A stretch of 64,000 nt of DNA from assembly GCA_041489155.1 (NCBI GenBank), contig JBGPQP010000004.1, forward strand, positions 13,592 to 77,591, written 5' to 3'. Position numbers and translations under genes: made by a program. Shown here in pieces: positions 2,779-42,901 of the stretch (positions within the stretch are counted from its first letter, which is position 1; each line of letters starts with the position of its first letter). The DNA is from Candidatus Aenigmatarchaeota archaeon. GTDB lineage: Archaea; Aenigmatarchaeota; Aenigmatarchaeia; QMZP01; QMZT01. Below the pieces are notes generated by a model, which was given only the letters and a program-made list of their open reading frames with translations, did not search any database and was not told where the DNA came from.

Positions 2779-5700
2779 ATGAAAGGATTCATGAAAATAA
2801 ATCTGGCCGCGTTTATTGCGTTAATGATGTTATTATCAATCATACTCTTTCCTAATGCAACCATGGCAACAATTTACTGCCCGGACTGCTCTAATACGTG
2901 TTGGAACCCATACTGGTTAACCAACTGTCCTGGGGGGTCAGCTGATAACTGCGGTGACTGTGGATGCACACAAACTTGTGACCAGGGGTGTGGTGCATCG
3001 TGCGATGATAACGGCGATTGCCCGAATTATTGTGCAGACGGTGACATATTGCAGGAGAACCGTGTATGTCAGTCAGGTTGCACATGCGACAGCGGCAGCT
3101 CATTTAATTGCAATAACTATAACTTTTACCTGTGTGGCAGCGGAAATGTCAGGTATCTTCGTAATTATTATTGTTCTGGTGGGAATTGCAACTCATACAA
3201 TGATGATTGGATAGATGACTGCGACGCAGTATGCGACGGCACCTGGATGAAGAAATGCAGCGGCGGCGATTGCGTCCTTGACTATGATTGCCTCGCCACC
3301 TGCACAGGCAAGCAGCGCTACCACGGCTGCTACGGCGGCTGCAACAGCCCCTATTGTGACACCGGCTACGGGAACCCGTGCGGAGCCGCATGCGACCAGA
3401 ACGACGTGCAGGAAGGGGGCGATCCGAATTGGTGCCAGGCCTGCTCAAACGACGCGAACTGCGCGTGGAACAACATAAATAACGGCTATCAATGCAGCTC
3501 CGCGGATTCGTGCTCCGGCAATTCGGTGTGCACACACTACGATTGCAGCAGCGGTGCGTGCAGCGCCCAGGATGGCTGCACCAACTGCGACATTTATGAT
3601 GGTTGGTATGGCGGCGGAGAAAATGGTTGCGGTGTCTATGATGACCCAACATCATATTACCGCGATTATTACTGCTCTAGCGGCTCGTGTACTTATTCTA
3701 ACACGAACTCTGCTGACTGCGACATTTATGATGGTTGGTATGGCGGCGGCAACACGGCTGGCTGCGGTGATGACCCAACATCATACCACAGGGATTATTA
3801 TGTAATTGCAAATACCGACTCATGTGACTACTGCAATGCCGACTCTGCTGATTGTGACGGTTCTGATGTCTGTTCTAATGTATGTTTAGGATCTTACATA
3901 TACAGTTACTTGGATTATTATGTGACTGCAAACACAGGCTCGTGCACATATGCATGGGGTTCATATATTGAAGACTGCGCGACAAAAGCGAGCGAGTGCA
4001 CGAGTGTTTCAAATTACAGGGACTACGTGGGCTGTTCGGGCGGTGCGTGCACTTATAATGATTATGATTCCGACTCGGCACAAGGTTATTGTGATGCGTG
4101 CAAGGGCGCTGGTTACTGGTACCTTGGAGGTGAAACTTCGCCAACCACGTGCTGCGAGGATTCTGGAGAATACAAAAGAACTTTTGTAGATTACGCAGGG
4201 AATTCATATGGTGTCCAGGACTGGGGCTCCAGCCAGGCAGCATGTTGCGATGCATCAACTGACCATATAAATTACAACGGCCAGTGTGTTACATCCGGCT
4301 CAGGCGGTTATGCAGTAGCAACAGGATATTCTGTTCATGACCAATATGCTTATCCTTACTACTATTCCGGTGATCAAGGATGGCTCGACCTGGACGGTCA
4401 TTCGTCCTGGCCAGCTGCATTCGGAGCAAATGTATGCGGCGGCAGCGGCTGGATATACATGTATGGCGATTCTACCGGAGAGAAATGCTCCACCGCAGGG
4501 GGCAGCGGCTGCTGGGACGCAGGACAAAACAACTATGGCTGCTGCGGCGATGATTCAGGAGAGAATTATCTTTACAGGTTGAGTTATTCGGACCAGGTTG
4601 GAGGGCTTACAGCAACTAGTACATCCGATTACGCATGCTGTGATGCTTCAACAGATTGCGTGTATAATGGAGCGTGTTATGCTCAAAGTACTTGGTATGA
4701 TTTAGATAGTAATGGTGTATATGATTCATACTGTTATGGCGTTAATGGCTGGTTAAATGCAGATAGACATACTTCATATTGTACAGCAAATCATTGGAAT
4801 ATTGGCGGAGATGCGGATTTAGAAGGTGATTATTATCAGGTCGGCGGAGGACGAACTGATTTTTGTGATATAGGTGCAGCCGGAACTCCAAGTACACAAT
4901 GCTGCTGCGGCGACGATACTGGGGAAAATTACAGGACATGCACCGATTCTTCAGCGAACGGCGACTGCGGAGCAGATACAACAGCGTGCTGCACTGCTAC
5001 AACAAAGTGCATTGACCACAACGGCGCATGCCAGTCGACTGGTTCATGTTATACTTTTGGTTCAGGTGGGTTGAAATCATATTGTAACTCCGGAACATGG
5101 GAAGACCCTGACGAAGCGAGTGGCTATTGCACAGCATCCGGATGCGGATACACATGGATGACAAACGTGCCCACTAGCGGAACACAATGCTGTGCTGATG
5201 ATTCAACATCAGATAATTCATATTATTATTCAGCTAATCCTACGACTGCAACATCGCTTTCCTGCGAGCGCTGCAATGCGGGCAGTTATGTTTCACCTGT
5301 AACTTATTATGGGAATGGTTATTACACGGGCTCACTGACCACTTCAACAACAACTAACTGCTATTATGGTGACATTACTTGCAGTGCCGCGAACGGCGCG
5401 AACGGAACCAATGCTAACATATATGGCAACGGCTGGACGACAGGTTCTGTAACGACGTCTACTTCGCTTGTATGCTACTACGGCGACATGGGTTGCAGCG
5501 ACGGATCACAGAGCAACGGCACTTCTGGAACGTACTACGGCAACGGATATTCTAGCGGCAGTGGGACTTCAAGGACATGCCATTATGGCGATATAACCTG
5601 CAGCGATGGCTCTGCCTCAAACGGGACATCGCAGAATATTTACGGCTGGGGCTACTATGAGGGAAGCCTGACGGCATCGACGAGCGTGAGCTGCAAAAGC

Positions 5701-23089: not shown

Positions 23090-23135
23090 TTAAATTTATA
23101 TATTCGCCTGATAATATTTAGAGATAATTAGCACA

Positions 23136-23924
23136 ATGGTGATTTGTTTGAAAATCAAGGTCATCAGCAAGAAGGGAGAGAATTTCAGGTTTCTTCTGGA
23201 GGGGGCGAATCCCGCCTTCGCAAATACGCTCAGAAGGATAATGATATCGGAAGTACCGAACATGACCATCGATTCTGTCGAATTCCAGGACAACACGTCA
23301 GCGCTGTTCGACGAAATAATCGCGCACAGGATGGGCATGATACCTTTGCAGTTCGATCCGGACAAGTTCAACGTCATGAAGGACTGCAAATGCGAGGGCA
23401 AAGGCTGCCCGTCATGCCAAGTTTTCTTCGCGCTGGAAAAGACAGGACCGGCGATGGTTTATTCATCCGACCTGAAATCATCGAACAAGAGCGTAAGGCC
23501 TACTTCACCGGATTTCCCGATAGTCAAGCTGCTCAAGGACCAGCACCTGAAGATGGAAGCGACCGCGAGGCTCGGAACCGGCAGGGAGCATGCCAAATTC
23601 CAGTCAGCCAACGTGGCTTACAATTATTTGCCTACCATAGAGGCTTCAAGCTCAGAGGATTTCAAAAGGGTCGTAAGCGCCTGCCCCAAGGGCGTGCTGG
23701 AAGTAAAGAACAGGAAGCTTGTTCTGGTCGACCCCTACGCATGCAACGAATGCAAGATGTGCGAGGAAACGGACGAGGGGGTAAAGATGAAGGGGGATCC
23801 GACGAAATTCGTGTTCAAGGTCGAGAGCATCTCGGGCCTTGAGCCGGAGTACATAGTCGAGAGGGCCGTGCAGATTCTCGAGGAGAAGGCGAAGGACTTC
23901 AAGGAACAACTGAAGGAAGTGTAG
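23136..23924 (+). CDS. rpoD: DNA-directed RNA polymerase subunit D (Rpo3)
   Basis: 'NAFANTLRRIMISEVPNMTIDSVEFQDNTSALFDEIIAHRMGMIPL' is the conserved Rpo3/RpoD dimerisation region. An internal Cys cluster (CNECKMCEE) matches the Fe-S-like domain. Confidence 0.9.
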   Translation: MVICLKIKVISKKGENFRFLLEGANPAFANTLRRIMISEVPNMTIDSVEFQDNTSALFDEIIAHRMGMIPLQFDPDKFNVMKDCKCEGKGCPSCQVFFALEKTGPAMVYSSDLKSSNKSVRPTSPDFPIVKLLKDQHLKMEATARLGTGREHAKFQSANVAYNYLPTIEASSSEDFKRVVSACPKGVLEVKNRKLVLVDPYACNECKMCEETDEGVKMKGDPTKFVFKVESISGLEPEYIVERAVQILEEKAKDFKEQLKEV

Positions 23925-23925
23925 C

Positions 23926-24123
23926 ATGACGCTGAAGCTCATCGTCTCCTGGATTTTCGGAGGGGCGCTGATAGCAGCGGCCGCGTGGATTCTTGGCCAT
24001 CTCGACGAGACACTGGGCGTTTCGCCTGCATCGTACTGGACCGCGTTTTTCCTTGCCTTCGTGCTCATACTCATAGGCGGCCTAGCGTGGATAAGCGTCG
24101 CCACGGCGACGTCGAAGCACTAA
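23926..24123 (+). CDS. Small two-TM membrane protein, hypothetical
   Basis: 65 aa. The ATG lies 2 nt after the rpoD stop. Two hydrophobic helices. Confidence 0.4.
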   Translation: MTLKLIVSWIFGGALIAAAAWILGHLDETLGVSPASYWTAFFLAFVLILIGGLAWISVATATSKH

Positions 24124-24206
24124 CACGGGAATAAATTCTGAAAAAGCGGTCTGATTCTTGGAAACATTCGCAAGGAATAAAAAGGGGTTGCGACCAATAA
24201 TAAAGC

Positions 24207-24425
24207 ATGTTGAACGAAAACGAGATGCAGATACTGGGAGTTTTCAGCCAGCGCCTCCTCATCAGAAGGGACGAGCTGAGAAGCGTCCTTGCTGAGAGCG
24301 GCGTCAACGACGGCACGATGACGATAAACAGGCTCAGTAGCCTCGGATACCTGAAGTTCATCGAGGCCGTGGGCGCTCCGTGCTACACGATAACGCAAGA
24401 GGGGATCAGGGCACTTAAAAAATAA
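24207..24425 (+). CDS. Small winged-helix DNA-binding protein
   Basis: 72 aa. 'EMQILGVFSQRLLIRRDELRSVL...INRLSSLGYLKFIE' has an HTH-plus-wing pattern (MarR/ArsR-like mini-protein). Confidence 0.5.
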   Translation: MLNENEMQILGVFSQRLLIRRDELRSVLAESGVNDGTMTINRLSSLGYLKFIEAVGAPCYTITQEGIRALKK

Positions 24426-24512
24426 GTTATAAGCCCCTTCTTTCTTATTATAAATTACTTAGCACAACGTAGATACGCTGATGCAGGTTGAACCTGCGTC
24501 TTTTGAGACGTT

Positions 24513-24538
24513 AGCCCCGTGTTGTAGCGGTCAAGCAT
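24513..24538 (+). repeat. Degenerate duplicate of the tRNA-Gln 5' end (24/26 identical to 25469-25494)
   Basis: AGCCCCGTGTTGTAGCGGTCAAGCAT compared with AGCCCCGTGGTGTAGCGGCCAAGCAT. This direct repeat brackets the LAGLIDADG ORF. Confidence 0.85.
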
Positions 24539-25468
24539 AAATTTAAACATACAAATTCAACTATATATATGAGGGTAAAACTTTTAGATGGCAAACAAAG
24601 AGCATTAATAGAGCAAGTAAAAAATAAAAATAATTTTAATTTTAAAGAACTTTCGACATTTCTACGCGTCAATGGAGCAGCATTAAGAGAATGGTATTAT
24701 GAAAGATGTCTTTTACCTTACAATATTTTTAGAAAGTTAGATGAAGAAAAAAACTTCGAAAAATTTATAATGGAAATTAGAGAACAGAACTGGGGTCAAA
24801 GAGATGGGGGTAAAAAATCATATGGGAACACAAAGAAAATAAAAAAACCGCTTTTCGACGAAAGATTGGCAGAACTCGTGGGTATTTTATTAGGAGATGG
24901 CAACATCTATTCGTATAGAAATGTGAAAAACGGTAAAGTAATATCGACGCATAGTATAAGAATTTGTGGTGATTCCAGAAATGATCACGAGTATGTAACG
25001 GAACATGTTTCAAATTTGTTACAAAATCTTTTTGAAATAAAAACTCGTTTGTACAAAAGTAAAAAAAGAAACGCAGTTTATGTAATAGCTGATGGAATTG
25101 AACTAGTGAAATTTTTCAATTCATTTGGCTTGAAACCCGGAAATAAGATAAAAAACAATCTTACGATTCCAGAATGGATATGGCAAGATCCAGTATTTTT
25201 GAAATCTTGCATACGTGGTTTATTTGATACGGATGGTTCAATCTATGAATTAAAACCGCATTGGCCGGGTTTGATTCAAATATCGTTCAGAAATTATAAT
25301 AAACTCCTCCTGAAAGATGTAGAAAGAGCCTTGAAACAATTAGGTTTCATTACATCGAAAATACATGACAAAAAAATTTGCATAACGAAACAAAATGAAG
25401 TTGATAAATTTTTTAAGGAGATAAAACCTAATAATCCTAAACACGTTAAGAAATATGAAAAAATCAGA
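24539..25468 (+). mobile_element. AT-rich homing-endonuclease cassette between the 26-nt direct repeats
   Basis: Composition shifts visibly by eye. The cassette has its own TATA-like sequence (aaatttaaac...tatatata) and is bounded by duplicated tRNA 5' sequence. Confidence 0.55.
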
Positions 25469-25483
25469 AGCCCCGTGGTGTAG
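24569..25483 (+). CDS. LAGLIDADG homing endonuclease (double-motif)
   Basis: 'LAELVGILLGDGNIY' and 'CIRGLFDTDGSIY' are two LAGLIDADG motifs. The ORF is conspicuously AT-rich relative to its flanks. Its last five codons and stop (AGC CCC GTG GTG TAG) are the first nucleotides of tRNA-Gln. Confidence 0.85.
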   Translation: MRVKLLDGKQRALIEQVKNKNNFNFKELSTFLRVNGAALREWYYERCLLPYNIFRKLDEEKNFEKFIMEIREQNWGQRDGGKKSYGNTKKIKKPLFDERLAELVGILLGDGNIYSYRNVKNGKVISTHSIRICGDSRNDHEYVTEHVSNLLQNLFEIKTRLYKSKKRNAVYVIADGIELVKFFNSFGLKPGNKIKNNLTIPEWIWQDPVFLKSCIRGLFDTDGSIYELKPHWPGLIQISFRNYNKLLLKDVERALKQLGFITSKIHDKKICITKQNEVDKFFKEIKPNNPKHVKKYEKIRSPVV

Positions 25484-25681
25484 CGGCCAAGCATTTTTCT
25501 GTATTTTTGATTGCAGAAAAATGGGCTAGGCATGCAGGGCTTTGGATTCACAAAGCTTCCAAAGCTTTGAGAACCCCCCACTAAGGGATTTCCGTGAACG
25601 CTTTGGCGGACGCGGAAGCTCCTTCAGGGGTTCTGTGAAAGAAGAAACCCGGCGACGGCGGTTCGAATCCGCCCGGGGCTA
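25469..25681 (+). tRNA. tRNA-Gln (TTG) with two introns: 25491-25529 (D-arm) and 25546-25646 (position 37/38)
   Basis: Exons AGCCCCGTGGTGTAGCGGCCAA | GCATGCAGGGCTTTGG | ACCCGGCGACGGCGGTTCGAATCCGCCCGGGGCTA give a 73-nt cloverleaf. Acceptor AGCCCCG/CGGGGCT plus A73; loop CTTTGGA; T arm GGCGG TTCGAAT CCGCC. There is one A28-G42 mismatch in the anticodon stem. Confidence 0.8.
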
Positions 25682-25692
25682 TCCTTTCTCAA

Positions 25693-26097
25693 TCAAATGT
25701 GATAAAAAGTGTAAGTTCCCCTCGTGTCCCTGCCCTGGCCGGAGACTGCGATGGTGATGGTCAGGGGATTGTTGGGCGGGGTTTTGCCCCAGTTGGAGCA
25801 GTTCAGGGCATAGAGCATCTCTATAGAATACGTCCTGCCGTACTCCTCCTGGAAAGACGTCTTGAGGTCCTCGAGCCTGTTCTCGAAGCTGTCCTTGGTT
25901 TCGTTGCAGTAATAGGTCTCACGTATGGTCTGGTTGAGGCCGCTTAGTATGTTGTTGAAAATCCGGACGTCCATCGCCATGAAAGGCTCGGTGATGTCGA
26001 CCTCGGAATACTGGAACAATGCCTGCTGGACGATGAATATCATGCCTACGAGGAAAACGATTGCGACAAGAAACAGCTGGCCCTTTTTCTTCCCCAT
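25693..26097 (-). CDS. Type IV pilin-like protein (class III signal peptide candidate)
   Basis: The N-terminus MGKKKG|QLFLVAIVFLVGMIFIVQQ has a basic stretch, Gly, Gln(+1), then a ~20-aa hydrophobic helix. This is the archaeal prepilin pattern. 134 aa. Confidence 0.5.
   Translation of the reverse strand: MGKKKGQLFLVAIVFLVGMIFIVQQALFQYSEVDITEPFMAMDVRIFNNILSGLNQTIRETYYCNETKDSFENRLEDLKTSFQEEYGRTYSIEMLYALNCSNWGKTPPNNPLTITIAVSGQGRDTRGTYTFYHI

Positions 26098-42781: not shown

Positions 42782-42901
<120 letters not shown>

Follow-up and report, generated by a model that had tools for sequence, protein, structure and literature searches.

Why does a gene for a homing endonuclease end inside a transfer RNA (tRNA) gene, and why does a second copy of the start of that tRNA gene lie on the far side of the endonuclease gene? 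The question is raised by a 64,000-nt stretch of contig JBGPQP010000004.1 (assembly GCA_041489155.1, Candidatus Aenigmatarchaeota archaeon), referred to here as the window, in which an open reading frame (ORF) for a LAGLIDADG protein overlaps a tRNA-Gln gene. It bears on a long-standing problem: where non-canonical archaeal tRNA introns, split tRNA genes and tRNA fragments come from. According to the leading idea, tRNA introns are inserted by mobile elements and then guard against re-invasion; its support comes mainly from integrase-type elements and one population study. Here, positions 24539-25533 are probably a mobile cassette, at the heart of which is a free-standing LAGLIDADG homing endonuclease directed at the tRNA-Gln gene. 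The locus represents a variant of the free-standing homing-endonuclease elements that is widespread and, it appears, has not been described.

An original prediction, made from the letters of the window, had pointed to an AT-rich, double-motif LAGLIDADG ORF with its stop codon inside tRNA-Gln, and the Pfam match, the GC profile and the coordinates all agree with that description. GC content is 0.275-0.355 over 24500-25500, as against 0.49-0.58 on both sides (about 30% versus about 53%), and the stop codon TAG (25481-25483) is also nt 13-15 of the tRNA. The prediction had further claimed a 24/26 copy of the tRNA 5' end 956 bp upstream, and a repeat search recovers exactly this: 24513-24538 and 25469-25494 are identical at 24 of 26 positions with a spacing of 956 bp, and when up to three mismatches are allowed the 26-mer occurs at these two sites only in the 64 kb (expected 0.00, from 100 shuffles). 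The upstream copy was, however, misread at its end, which is ...TCAAGCAT and not ...CCAAGCAT. It differs from the working copy by G10>U and by a C>U change in the D-loop. The sequence GCAT (tRNA nt 22-25) stands at both borders of what, relative to an empty site, is a 995-bp insert.

Empty sites are found in relatives. Judged by FtsZ, whose gene is 550 nt downstream, the host is one of the Aenigmarchaeota-like DPANN archaea, and its FtsZ is 82% and 81% identical to the FtsZ proteins of the relatives compared (L087 and L088/L089); L086, with 97% identity, was left out as its contig stops before the tRNA. The order FtsZ, small ORF, tRNA-Gln, 72-aa ORF, 65-aa ORF, RpoD is kept in L087 and L088/L089, where 231-276 nt separate the flanking genes and contain the tRNA-Gln gene. 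In L087, L088 and L089 this gene has neither an adjoining endonuclease gene nor a D-arm intron, and the empty site reads AGCCCCGTGGTGTAGAGGCCAAGCAT joined to GCAGGGCTTTGGAT... The upstream flank of L087 is near-identical to that of the window until about 24478, and the upstream 26-mer of the window therefore marks the position of the native tRNA start, as expected of the left-behind 5' exon that the original prediction had taken it to be. Exons 2 and 3 are identical in the window and its relatives (L087, L089 alignment); the anticodon-loop intron is homologous in L087 and L089, but variable. Besides the endonuclease gene, the insert thus delimited contains a spacer with a promoter, a repeat of tRNA nt 1-21 and a 39-nt intron. 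Because the syntenic relatives lack both, the endonuclease gene and the short D-arm intron appear to have arrived together in the window, rather than the intron having been regenerated secondarily, as had been suggested.

The rebuilt tRNA-Gln gene is interrupted twice (Table 1), and it is detected neither by default ARAGORN nor by Rfam. Once both introns are removed, ARAGORN calls a 73-nt tRNA-Gln(UUG). In the minimum free energy structure from RNAfold, the 3' end of the D-arm intron, GGCU, is base-paired to exon residues G17-C20. The resulting 4-bp helix (GGCC/GGCU) is bordered by bulges, AAG on the 5' side and AG(G), of 2-3 nt, on the 3' side, and by a 12-bp inner helix. On this predicted fold the 39-nt insert is read as a relaxed bulge-helix-bulge (BHB) intron. 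It holds no ORF, and its removal gives the exon sequence of intron-less relatives. For the 101-nt intron, manual reading gives a BHB with a C32UUU35/GAAG central helix and bulges GG/A and AA/A. An A28.G42 mismatch in the anticodon stem (25536, 25651) was considered as the mark of a dying tRNA, and this was ruled out by its presence in L087 and in the metagenome tRNA-Gln genes L138 and L145, which makes it a lineage trait and not decay. A group I intron or other known RNA family was likewise rejected, as a permissive Rfam scan of 24300-25800 gave three chance-level matches only.

Table 1. Features of the tRNA-Gln locus, in window coordinates
Feature	Position	Strand	Remarks
Presumed native tRNA-Gln promoter, TATA-like TTATAAAT	24448-24455	+	putative function
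Relic of native tRNA-Gln 5' part (Sprinzl nt 1-25)	24513-24538	+	
995-bp insert relative to empty site	24539-25533, equally 24535-25529	+	
Endonuclease-gene TATA box TTTAAA	24542-24547	+	27 nt before ATG
LAGLIDADG endonuclease ORF	24569-25483	+	304 aa, intact, double-motif
tRNA-Gln exon 1 (nt 1-21), replacement copy	25469-25490	+	overlaps final 15 nt of endonuclease ORF
D-arm intron, position 21/22 (after A21)	25491-25529	+	39 nt, AT-rich, relaxed BHB (predicted)
tRNA-Gln exon 2 (nt 22-37, anticodon UUG), native	25530-25545	+	same as L087
Anticodon-loop intron, canonical 37/38	25546-25646	+	101 nt, normal GC
tRNA-Gln exon 3 (nt 38-73)	25647-25681	+	CCA not encoded

The box TTATAAAT lies 44 nt before tRNA nt 1 in the empty-site locus L087, and the cassette now stands between this presumed native promoter and the working tRNA. 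Between the box and the remnant is a hairpin followed by a T-run (GATGCAGGTTGAACCTGCGTCTTTTG) at 24479-24505, about 21 nt of which are not present in L087; this hairpin may stop or reduce transcription that comes through from the old promoter. The genes on either side of the cassette (24207-24425, plus strand, 72 aa; 25693-26097, minus strand, 134 aa) are conserved in position in L087 and L089, and neither has a Pfam or NCBIfam match. Elsewhere in the window, a tRNA-Ile(GAU) gene with a 43-nt intron (42782-42900, plus strand) is found by ARAGORN when introns are allowed and missed by the default run, which makes it probable that the annotation of this genome lists too few tRNA genes.

The protein matches Pfam LAGLIDADG_3 in two stretches (E 2.7e-14). 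Its GDG (G109-D110-G111) and DTDG (D220-T221-D222-G223) motifs, with the catalytic aspartates D110 and D222, are invariant in 35 homologues. An AlphaFold2 model has a predicted local distance difference test (pLDDT) score of 93.4, and its Foldseek matches include PI-PfuI, I-DmoI and I-Tsp061I (E 4e-9 to 3e-8, target TM-score 0.70-0.75), with bI3 maturase also among them. Superposition on the three endonucleases covers the C-terminal ~200 residues, which are predicted to form the double alpha-beta-beta-alpha-beta-beta-alpha saddle of a monomeric double-motif LAGLIDADG enzyme. This core is preceded by a helical N-terminal domain of ~75 aa that has no Pfam match. Given the invariant catalytic aspartates, a model at pLDDT 93 and an I-DmoI-like fold, the enzyme looks intact, and the protein bears no sign of being a dead enzyme. 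Viruses were considered as carriers and rejected, as IMG/VR holds distant LAGLIDADG relatives only (at most 35% identity over the core) that are without the N-terminal domain.

The association with a tRNA gene extends far beyond this locus. A search at E<=0.001 gave 297 homologues, none of them more than 53% identical, and those with a named source are mostly labelled DPANN archaea; across the family identity is 27-52% and the layout is constant. A scan of one genome per species yielded 80 loci, in which tRNA genes were sought with a detector requiring a 7-bp acceptor stem and a T-arm. The start of a tRNA lies between -25 and +50 nt relative to the endonuclease stop codon at 63 of 83 loci, compared with 3 of 889 control windows. 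The original prediction had regarded the tRNA association as unusual and had allowed that relatives might show the ORF with no link to tRNA; the arrangement instead proves to be widespread in DPANN archaea. ORF and tRNA most often overlap by 15 nt (30 loci), and next by 10 nt (15 loci). The C-termini of the homologues are AGCCCCGTGGTGTAG read in three frames (...SPVV, ...APWCSGQ, ...QPRGVV), so that the conserved element is the tRNA and not the peptide. A literature search of incomplete coverage turned up no account of LAGLIDADG genes next to tRNA genes, whether in DPANN archaea or in bacteria of the Candidate Phyla Radiation (CPR), and novelty is thus unproven.

Chance adjacency of an endonuclease gene and a tRNA, or mis-assembly, might in principle produce such a locus, given that the contigs of metagenome-assembled genomes (MAGs) can be chimeric and that sequencing depth over the AT-rich part is lower in some runs, inconsistently between runs. 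The adjacency count refutes this. In addition, contigs from two independent public sediment-metagenome runs match 23100-25172 without differences, including the upstream copy, whose absence on re-sequencing would have spoken against the element; both cassette junctions are reproduced identically in independent runs from different studies; and an identical endonuclease protein is encoded on three contigs (NCBI assembly GCA_041478965.1 and related assemblies). The probability left to an artefact is negligible.

Among intron-less cases, ARAGORN identifies the adjoining genes as tRNA-Gln (about 27), tRNA-Glu (5), tRNA-Val (2) and, in CPR bacteria, tRNA-Ser (7). In a neighbour-joining tree, the phylogeny that the original prediction had proposed, the endonuclease clades split by the type of the adjoining tRNA (Gln, Glu, Val and bacterial Ser), which argues for target specificity and not accidental adjacency. 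This pattern also bears on the possibility that the locus is the remnant of an integrase-type element (in the style of pNOB8 or SSV) that inserted at the 5' part of the tRNA, lost its integrase and carried the LAGLIDADG gene as cargo. Direct repeats of part of a tRNA at the borders, together with a rebuilt tRNA that gains an intron, are indeed the layout of the Caldiarchaeum tRNA-Thr locus, at which the rebuilt tRNA has a recombinase gene beside it (PMC3293823). However, the insert is just 995 bp long and its single ORF encodes the LAGLIDADG protein, with no recombinase gene, in agreement with what the original prediction had said about integrases. More than 60 loci show this minimal unit without integrases, the endonuclease clades track tRNA type and the ORF always abuts the first tRNA bases. 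An integrase-type origin is therefore very unlikely.

Some genomes carry two or more cassettes. On the Pacearchaeota contig JBBDJR010000006.1, cassettes L011 and L021 occupy both tRNA-Gln isoacceptors (CUG, UUG); the two endonucleases are only 52% identical, and so do not reflect a recent copy within the genome. A separate clade adjoins tRNA-Val(GAC) in Nanoarchaeota MAGs (L066, tRNA at 4023-4093; L070, tRNA at 4037-4108), genomes in which a cassette linked to tRNA-Gln or tRNA-Glu is present as well (L027, L052). The homologues in CPR bacteria (L057, L065, L072, L074, L078, L079 and L083) are 25-32% identical and adjoin tRNA-Ser genes. In L004 (3911-4245), the linked tRNA-Gln gene, missed by the detector, apparently has three introns by eye, in the D-arm, the anticodon loop and the T-loop.

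The displaced 5' end is also part of the recurrent unit. At 18 or more other loci, tRNA nt 1-22/25 are duplicated 30-45 nt ahead of the endonuclease ATG (p<=0.01 versus shuffles), and a weaker remnant signal is present in many further loci. Remnant, promoter, endonuclease gene and complete tRNA are thus the standard unit of the family, and the separate secondary event that had been invoked for the window is unneeded. The remnants are decayed, with G18G19 lost in several and the acceptor strand lost in many, and they are not working exons. Their best-conserved part is the 3' end, which abuts the TATA box, and directly after the remnant is a motif like (N)CA(A/T)-TAAATTTATA. Across 60 archaeal loci, the positions of TATA-like hexamers show a sharp peak at -29 to -27 relative to the ATG (65 matches in this 10-nt bin versus at most 11 elsewhere), a spacing that implies a putative leaderless endonuclease mRNA starting at the ATG. 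There is no comparable peak of such hexamers about 30 nt before tRNA nt 1, and for this reason the tRNA would most simply be transcribed as the tail of the endonuclease mRNA. A tRNA promoter within the conserved C-terminal 'NPKH-L-N-K' codons was considered and rejected, as there is no hexamer peak at -30. If the tRNA is made in this way, it may be, as a speculation, that the stop codon, lying within the tRNA, is removed by RNase P, which might keep endonuclease expression low. The bacterial relatives have a sigma-70-type promoter, TTGACT-17-TATAAT (11 of 12 positions match in L074 and 10 of 12 in L057), and upstream of it are decayed remnants that resemble tRNA-Ser. Since bacteria are without BHB splicing, the layout is independent of it.

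These remnants bear on another possible explanation, in which the locus is a single tRNA-Gln gene with a giant BHB intron in the D-arm. Exon 1 proper would then be the upstream 26-mer, splicing would remove about 995 nt (24534 to 25530) and the downstream copy would be intronic. Archaeal rRNA BHB introns are well established as carriers of LAGLIDADG genes, I-DmoI being one example, and the remnant in the window has just two changes in 26 positions, with the GGUC AA/G context unaltered. The downstream copy, however, makes a complete tRNA with a compact BHB that has a local 12-bp inner helix, and the 3' part of the intron pairs far better with the nearby exon copy than with the remnant (-24 versus -10 kcal/mol). 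The remnant also has U10 at the nearly universal G10, and elsewhere in the family G18G19 or the acceptor strand is missing from remnants. The D-arm intron is missing from 30 of 56 linked tRNAs, and the same layout exists in bacteria, which lack the splicing machinery for it. A giant intron is hence highly improbable, and the long splice that the original prediction had put forward for checking is unlikely; the endonuclease gene is a free-standing one with its own TATA box, the ORF of which ends in exon 1.

The short D-arm intron is itself a recurrent companion of the endonuclease gene. It is found right after A21 in 26 of 56 parsed archaeal endonuclease-linked tRNA-Gln/Glu genes, with a length of 19-45 nt and the common design GG(C/U)C-AA ... 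G(G/A)CU-A. The background for comparison was a set of 120 tRNA-Gln genes from metagenomes, picked by their 5'-end pattern, of which three are endonuclease-linked. Among the ~68 of these with enough upstream sequence, a 21/22 intron occurs in about 5 independent genes, so that the enrichment in linked genes (26/56 versus ~5/68) has a Fisher p of 6e-7. That the intron might be exclusive to endonuclease-linked genes was rejected, as L098, L135, L192 and L198 have it. Their introns (GG(U/C)C-AA ... GACU-A) follow an ordinary upstream TATA, with no endonuclease gene or remnant, and may have been left behind by cassettes since lost, or have arisen independently.

Linked genes with and without the intron differ in how the working D-stem compares with the remnant. 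When the intron is present there are 0-1 differences, and in the window (W), L044 and L006 remnant nt 22-25 are the same as the start of exon 2. When it is absent there are 0-4 differences (mean 1.7), more than with the intron (Mann-Whitney p 0.005), and the changes are compensating, as in L011 (GTAC..GTAG versus GTCT..AGAT). In this small and phylogenetically non-independent sample, the pattern fits two putative routes to a cut-resistant gene, one in which an intron splits the target and one in which the target is recoded. Cassette and intron have a common boundary at 21/22-25/26.

A model for the cassette can be drawn from these features. LAGLIDADG enzymes typically leave 4-nt 3' overhangs. 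We infer from the borders of the insert that the enzyme cleaves the tRNA gene: it would cut the uninterrupted gene in the D-arm, at about nt 21-26. The 4-nt GCAT at both borders has the size of such an overhang. The break would be repaired by copying the cassette from a filled allele, with the tRNA 5' part pairing with the remnant of the donor as left homology and the tRNA 3' part providing right homology. The cassette would bring a replacement 5' segment and its own promoter, leaving the old 5' end as a relic. The rebuilt gene would escape re-cutting, either because an intron splits the target, as in loci of the window type, or, in intron-less loci, because the imported D-arm has a different, internally compensated sequence. 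The endonuclease mRNA would start at the ATG and run on into the tRNA, which RNase P and the splicing endonuclease would release; expression of the tRNA would then depend on the cassette promoter. The cassette may have been horizontally acquired from an AT-rich DPANN donor. The order of parts is relic nt 1-25, TATA box, ORF, new nt 1-21, 39-nt BHB intron and native remainder of the tRNA, an order that DPANN archaea show at tRNA-Gln, tRNA-Glu and tRNA-Val genes, and CPR bacteria at tRNA-Ser genes. The core of the original prediction, a homing-endonuclease element tied to the D-arm intron site of tRNA-Gln, is thus upheld by the empty sites (empty in L087, L088 and L089, filled in the window) and by the family pattern; its account of origin and of rarity is not.

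It may instead be that the LAGLIDADG protein is domesticated, an immobile and vertically inherited partner of the tRNA that acts as a regulator or processing helper, with the remnant kept as part of the promoter. The family is old and diverse (27-52% identity) with a constant layout, and the well-conserved 3' end of the remnant, abutting the TATA box, is consistent with a role as a transcription factor B recognition element or other promoter part. LAGLIDADG proteins can also become maturases, as bI3 maturase among the fold matches illustrates. Yet the gene is present in the window but not in its two nearest relatives, the composition looks foreign and the catalytic residues are invariant. Moreover, linkage in only three of the 120 sampled tRNA-Gln genes fits a sporadic parasite and not a needed factor. 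Domestication is consequently unlikely.

Several points weigh against a mobile cassette that targets the tRNA gene and protects its carrier. The left homology available for repair would be only ~22-26 nt. More than half of the linked tRNAs (30/56) are without a D-arm intron, immunity in these is explained only by recoding, and that explanation rests on few, phylogenetically non-independent loci. The intron enrichment is confounded by taxonomy, and 21/22 introns do occur without a nearby endonuclease gene (L098, L135, L192, L198). Residue 16 is C in both tRNA copies in the window and A in the syntenic relatives L087 and L089, and on sequence alone either copy may be the foreign one. Mobility is deduced from relatives at only 81-82% FtsZ identity. 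In the contigs of four DNA runs there is no cassette-skipping joint for this locus, the joints listed being intron-less tRNA-Gln genes of other organisms. None of the RNA runs contains the sequence of the locus, and every sequence used derives from metagenome assemblies.

If the mobile cassette is nevertheless accepted, a broader proposal can be made tentatively: these cassettes might constitute an unrecognised, cross-domain class of natural tRNA-gene 'cleave-and-replace' drives, from which a major share of the non-canonical D-arm introns and orphan tRNA fragments of DPANN archaea could stem. The endonuclease would then spread with a cut-resistant replacement of the tRNA 5' end and take over transcription of the tRNA. 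Such drives could in this way open a route toward split tRNA genes, and they would supply a concrete, testable agent for tRNA introns that arise from, and guard against, mobile elements. The system is compact and recurrent, with gene, promoter, replacement exon and intron gained jointly and with empty sites in relatives, and it makes a mobile-element origin of tRNA introns testable by a simple cleavage assay. The failure of ARAGORN and Rfam here suggests that annotation of DPANN and CPR tRNAs systematically misses such genes. The enzymes could also provide new LAGLIDADG scaffolds specific for tRNA genes, and natural rescue by an intron or by compensated recoding would parallel engineered gene drives.

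Among known systems, the closest mechanism may be collaborative homing, with which the cassette is compared here by analogy. In cyanophages, a free-standing endonuclease gene reportedly lies beside its intron-bearing target, psbA. As in that system, the endonuclease gene of the window is outside the intron and directly beside the target gene, the intron is at the presumed cut site, where it would protect its carrier, and between the window and its relatives gene and intron are present or absent jointly. The cassette differs from that system in having a tRNA gene as its target and, in place of a group I ribozyme, an intron of the protein-spliced BHB type; in addition it brings a replacement 5' end and leaves a relic, and about half of the related loci are intron-less. 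The cassette also resembles synthetic 'cleave and rescue' drives, which couple a nuclease against an essential gene with a functional version of that gene that resists cutting. It differs from these in being natural and in cis at the target locus, and an intron or compensated stem changes would make it resistant.

The archaeal enzymes I-DmoI, I-Tsp061I and I-PorI share archaeal hosts and a link to BHB introns with the window enzyme, and the first two share its predicted monomeric double-LAGLIDADG fold (target TM-score 0.70-0.75). Their genes, however, are inside spliced rRNA introns, whereas the window gene is free-standing, has its own promoter and abuts a tRNA, and the I-DmoI-type enzymes are without the extra ~75-aa N-terminal domain. 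The Allomyces atp6 element is a further case of a free-standing endonuclease with duplication of the target gene. In fungal mitochondria more generally, partial C-terminal copies of cob and atp6 occur beside endonuclease ORFs (PMC6279837, which lists the collaborative-homing papers Zeng, Bonocora & Shub 2009 and Bonocora & Shub 2009 as refs 64-65). These elements similarly carry a replacement gene piece and leave the displaced piece as a pseudo-fragment, but they have protein-coding targets and replace the 3' end, often by in-frame fusion, whereas in the window the 5' end of an RNA gene is replaced. Phage T4 SegB, a GIY-YIG endonuclease encoded in the tRNA gene cluster (PMC13096335), is likewise a free-standing homing endonuclease at tRNA genes, although it belongs to another enzyme family and its phage context is without a rebuilt tRNA or relic.

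The closest published layout is the tRNA-Thr locus of Caldiarchaeum subterraneum, where an upstream 5' fragment (nt 1-27) is separated by a 1.8-kb insert from a rebuilt tRNA with an intron at 24/25 (Sugahara et al. 2012, PMC3293823). The same study proposed that tRNA introns are gained via mobile elements and protect against re-invasion. There, as in the window, the gene of the insert abuts the rebuilt tRNA on the same strand. For Caldiarchaeum, however, a recombinase or integrase with attachment sites was proposed, whereas the only gene of the window insert encodes a LAGLIDADG endonuclease; and while the Caldiarchaeum case is a single locus, the LAGLIDADG cassettes are found at dozens of loci in many lineages.

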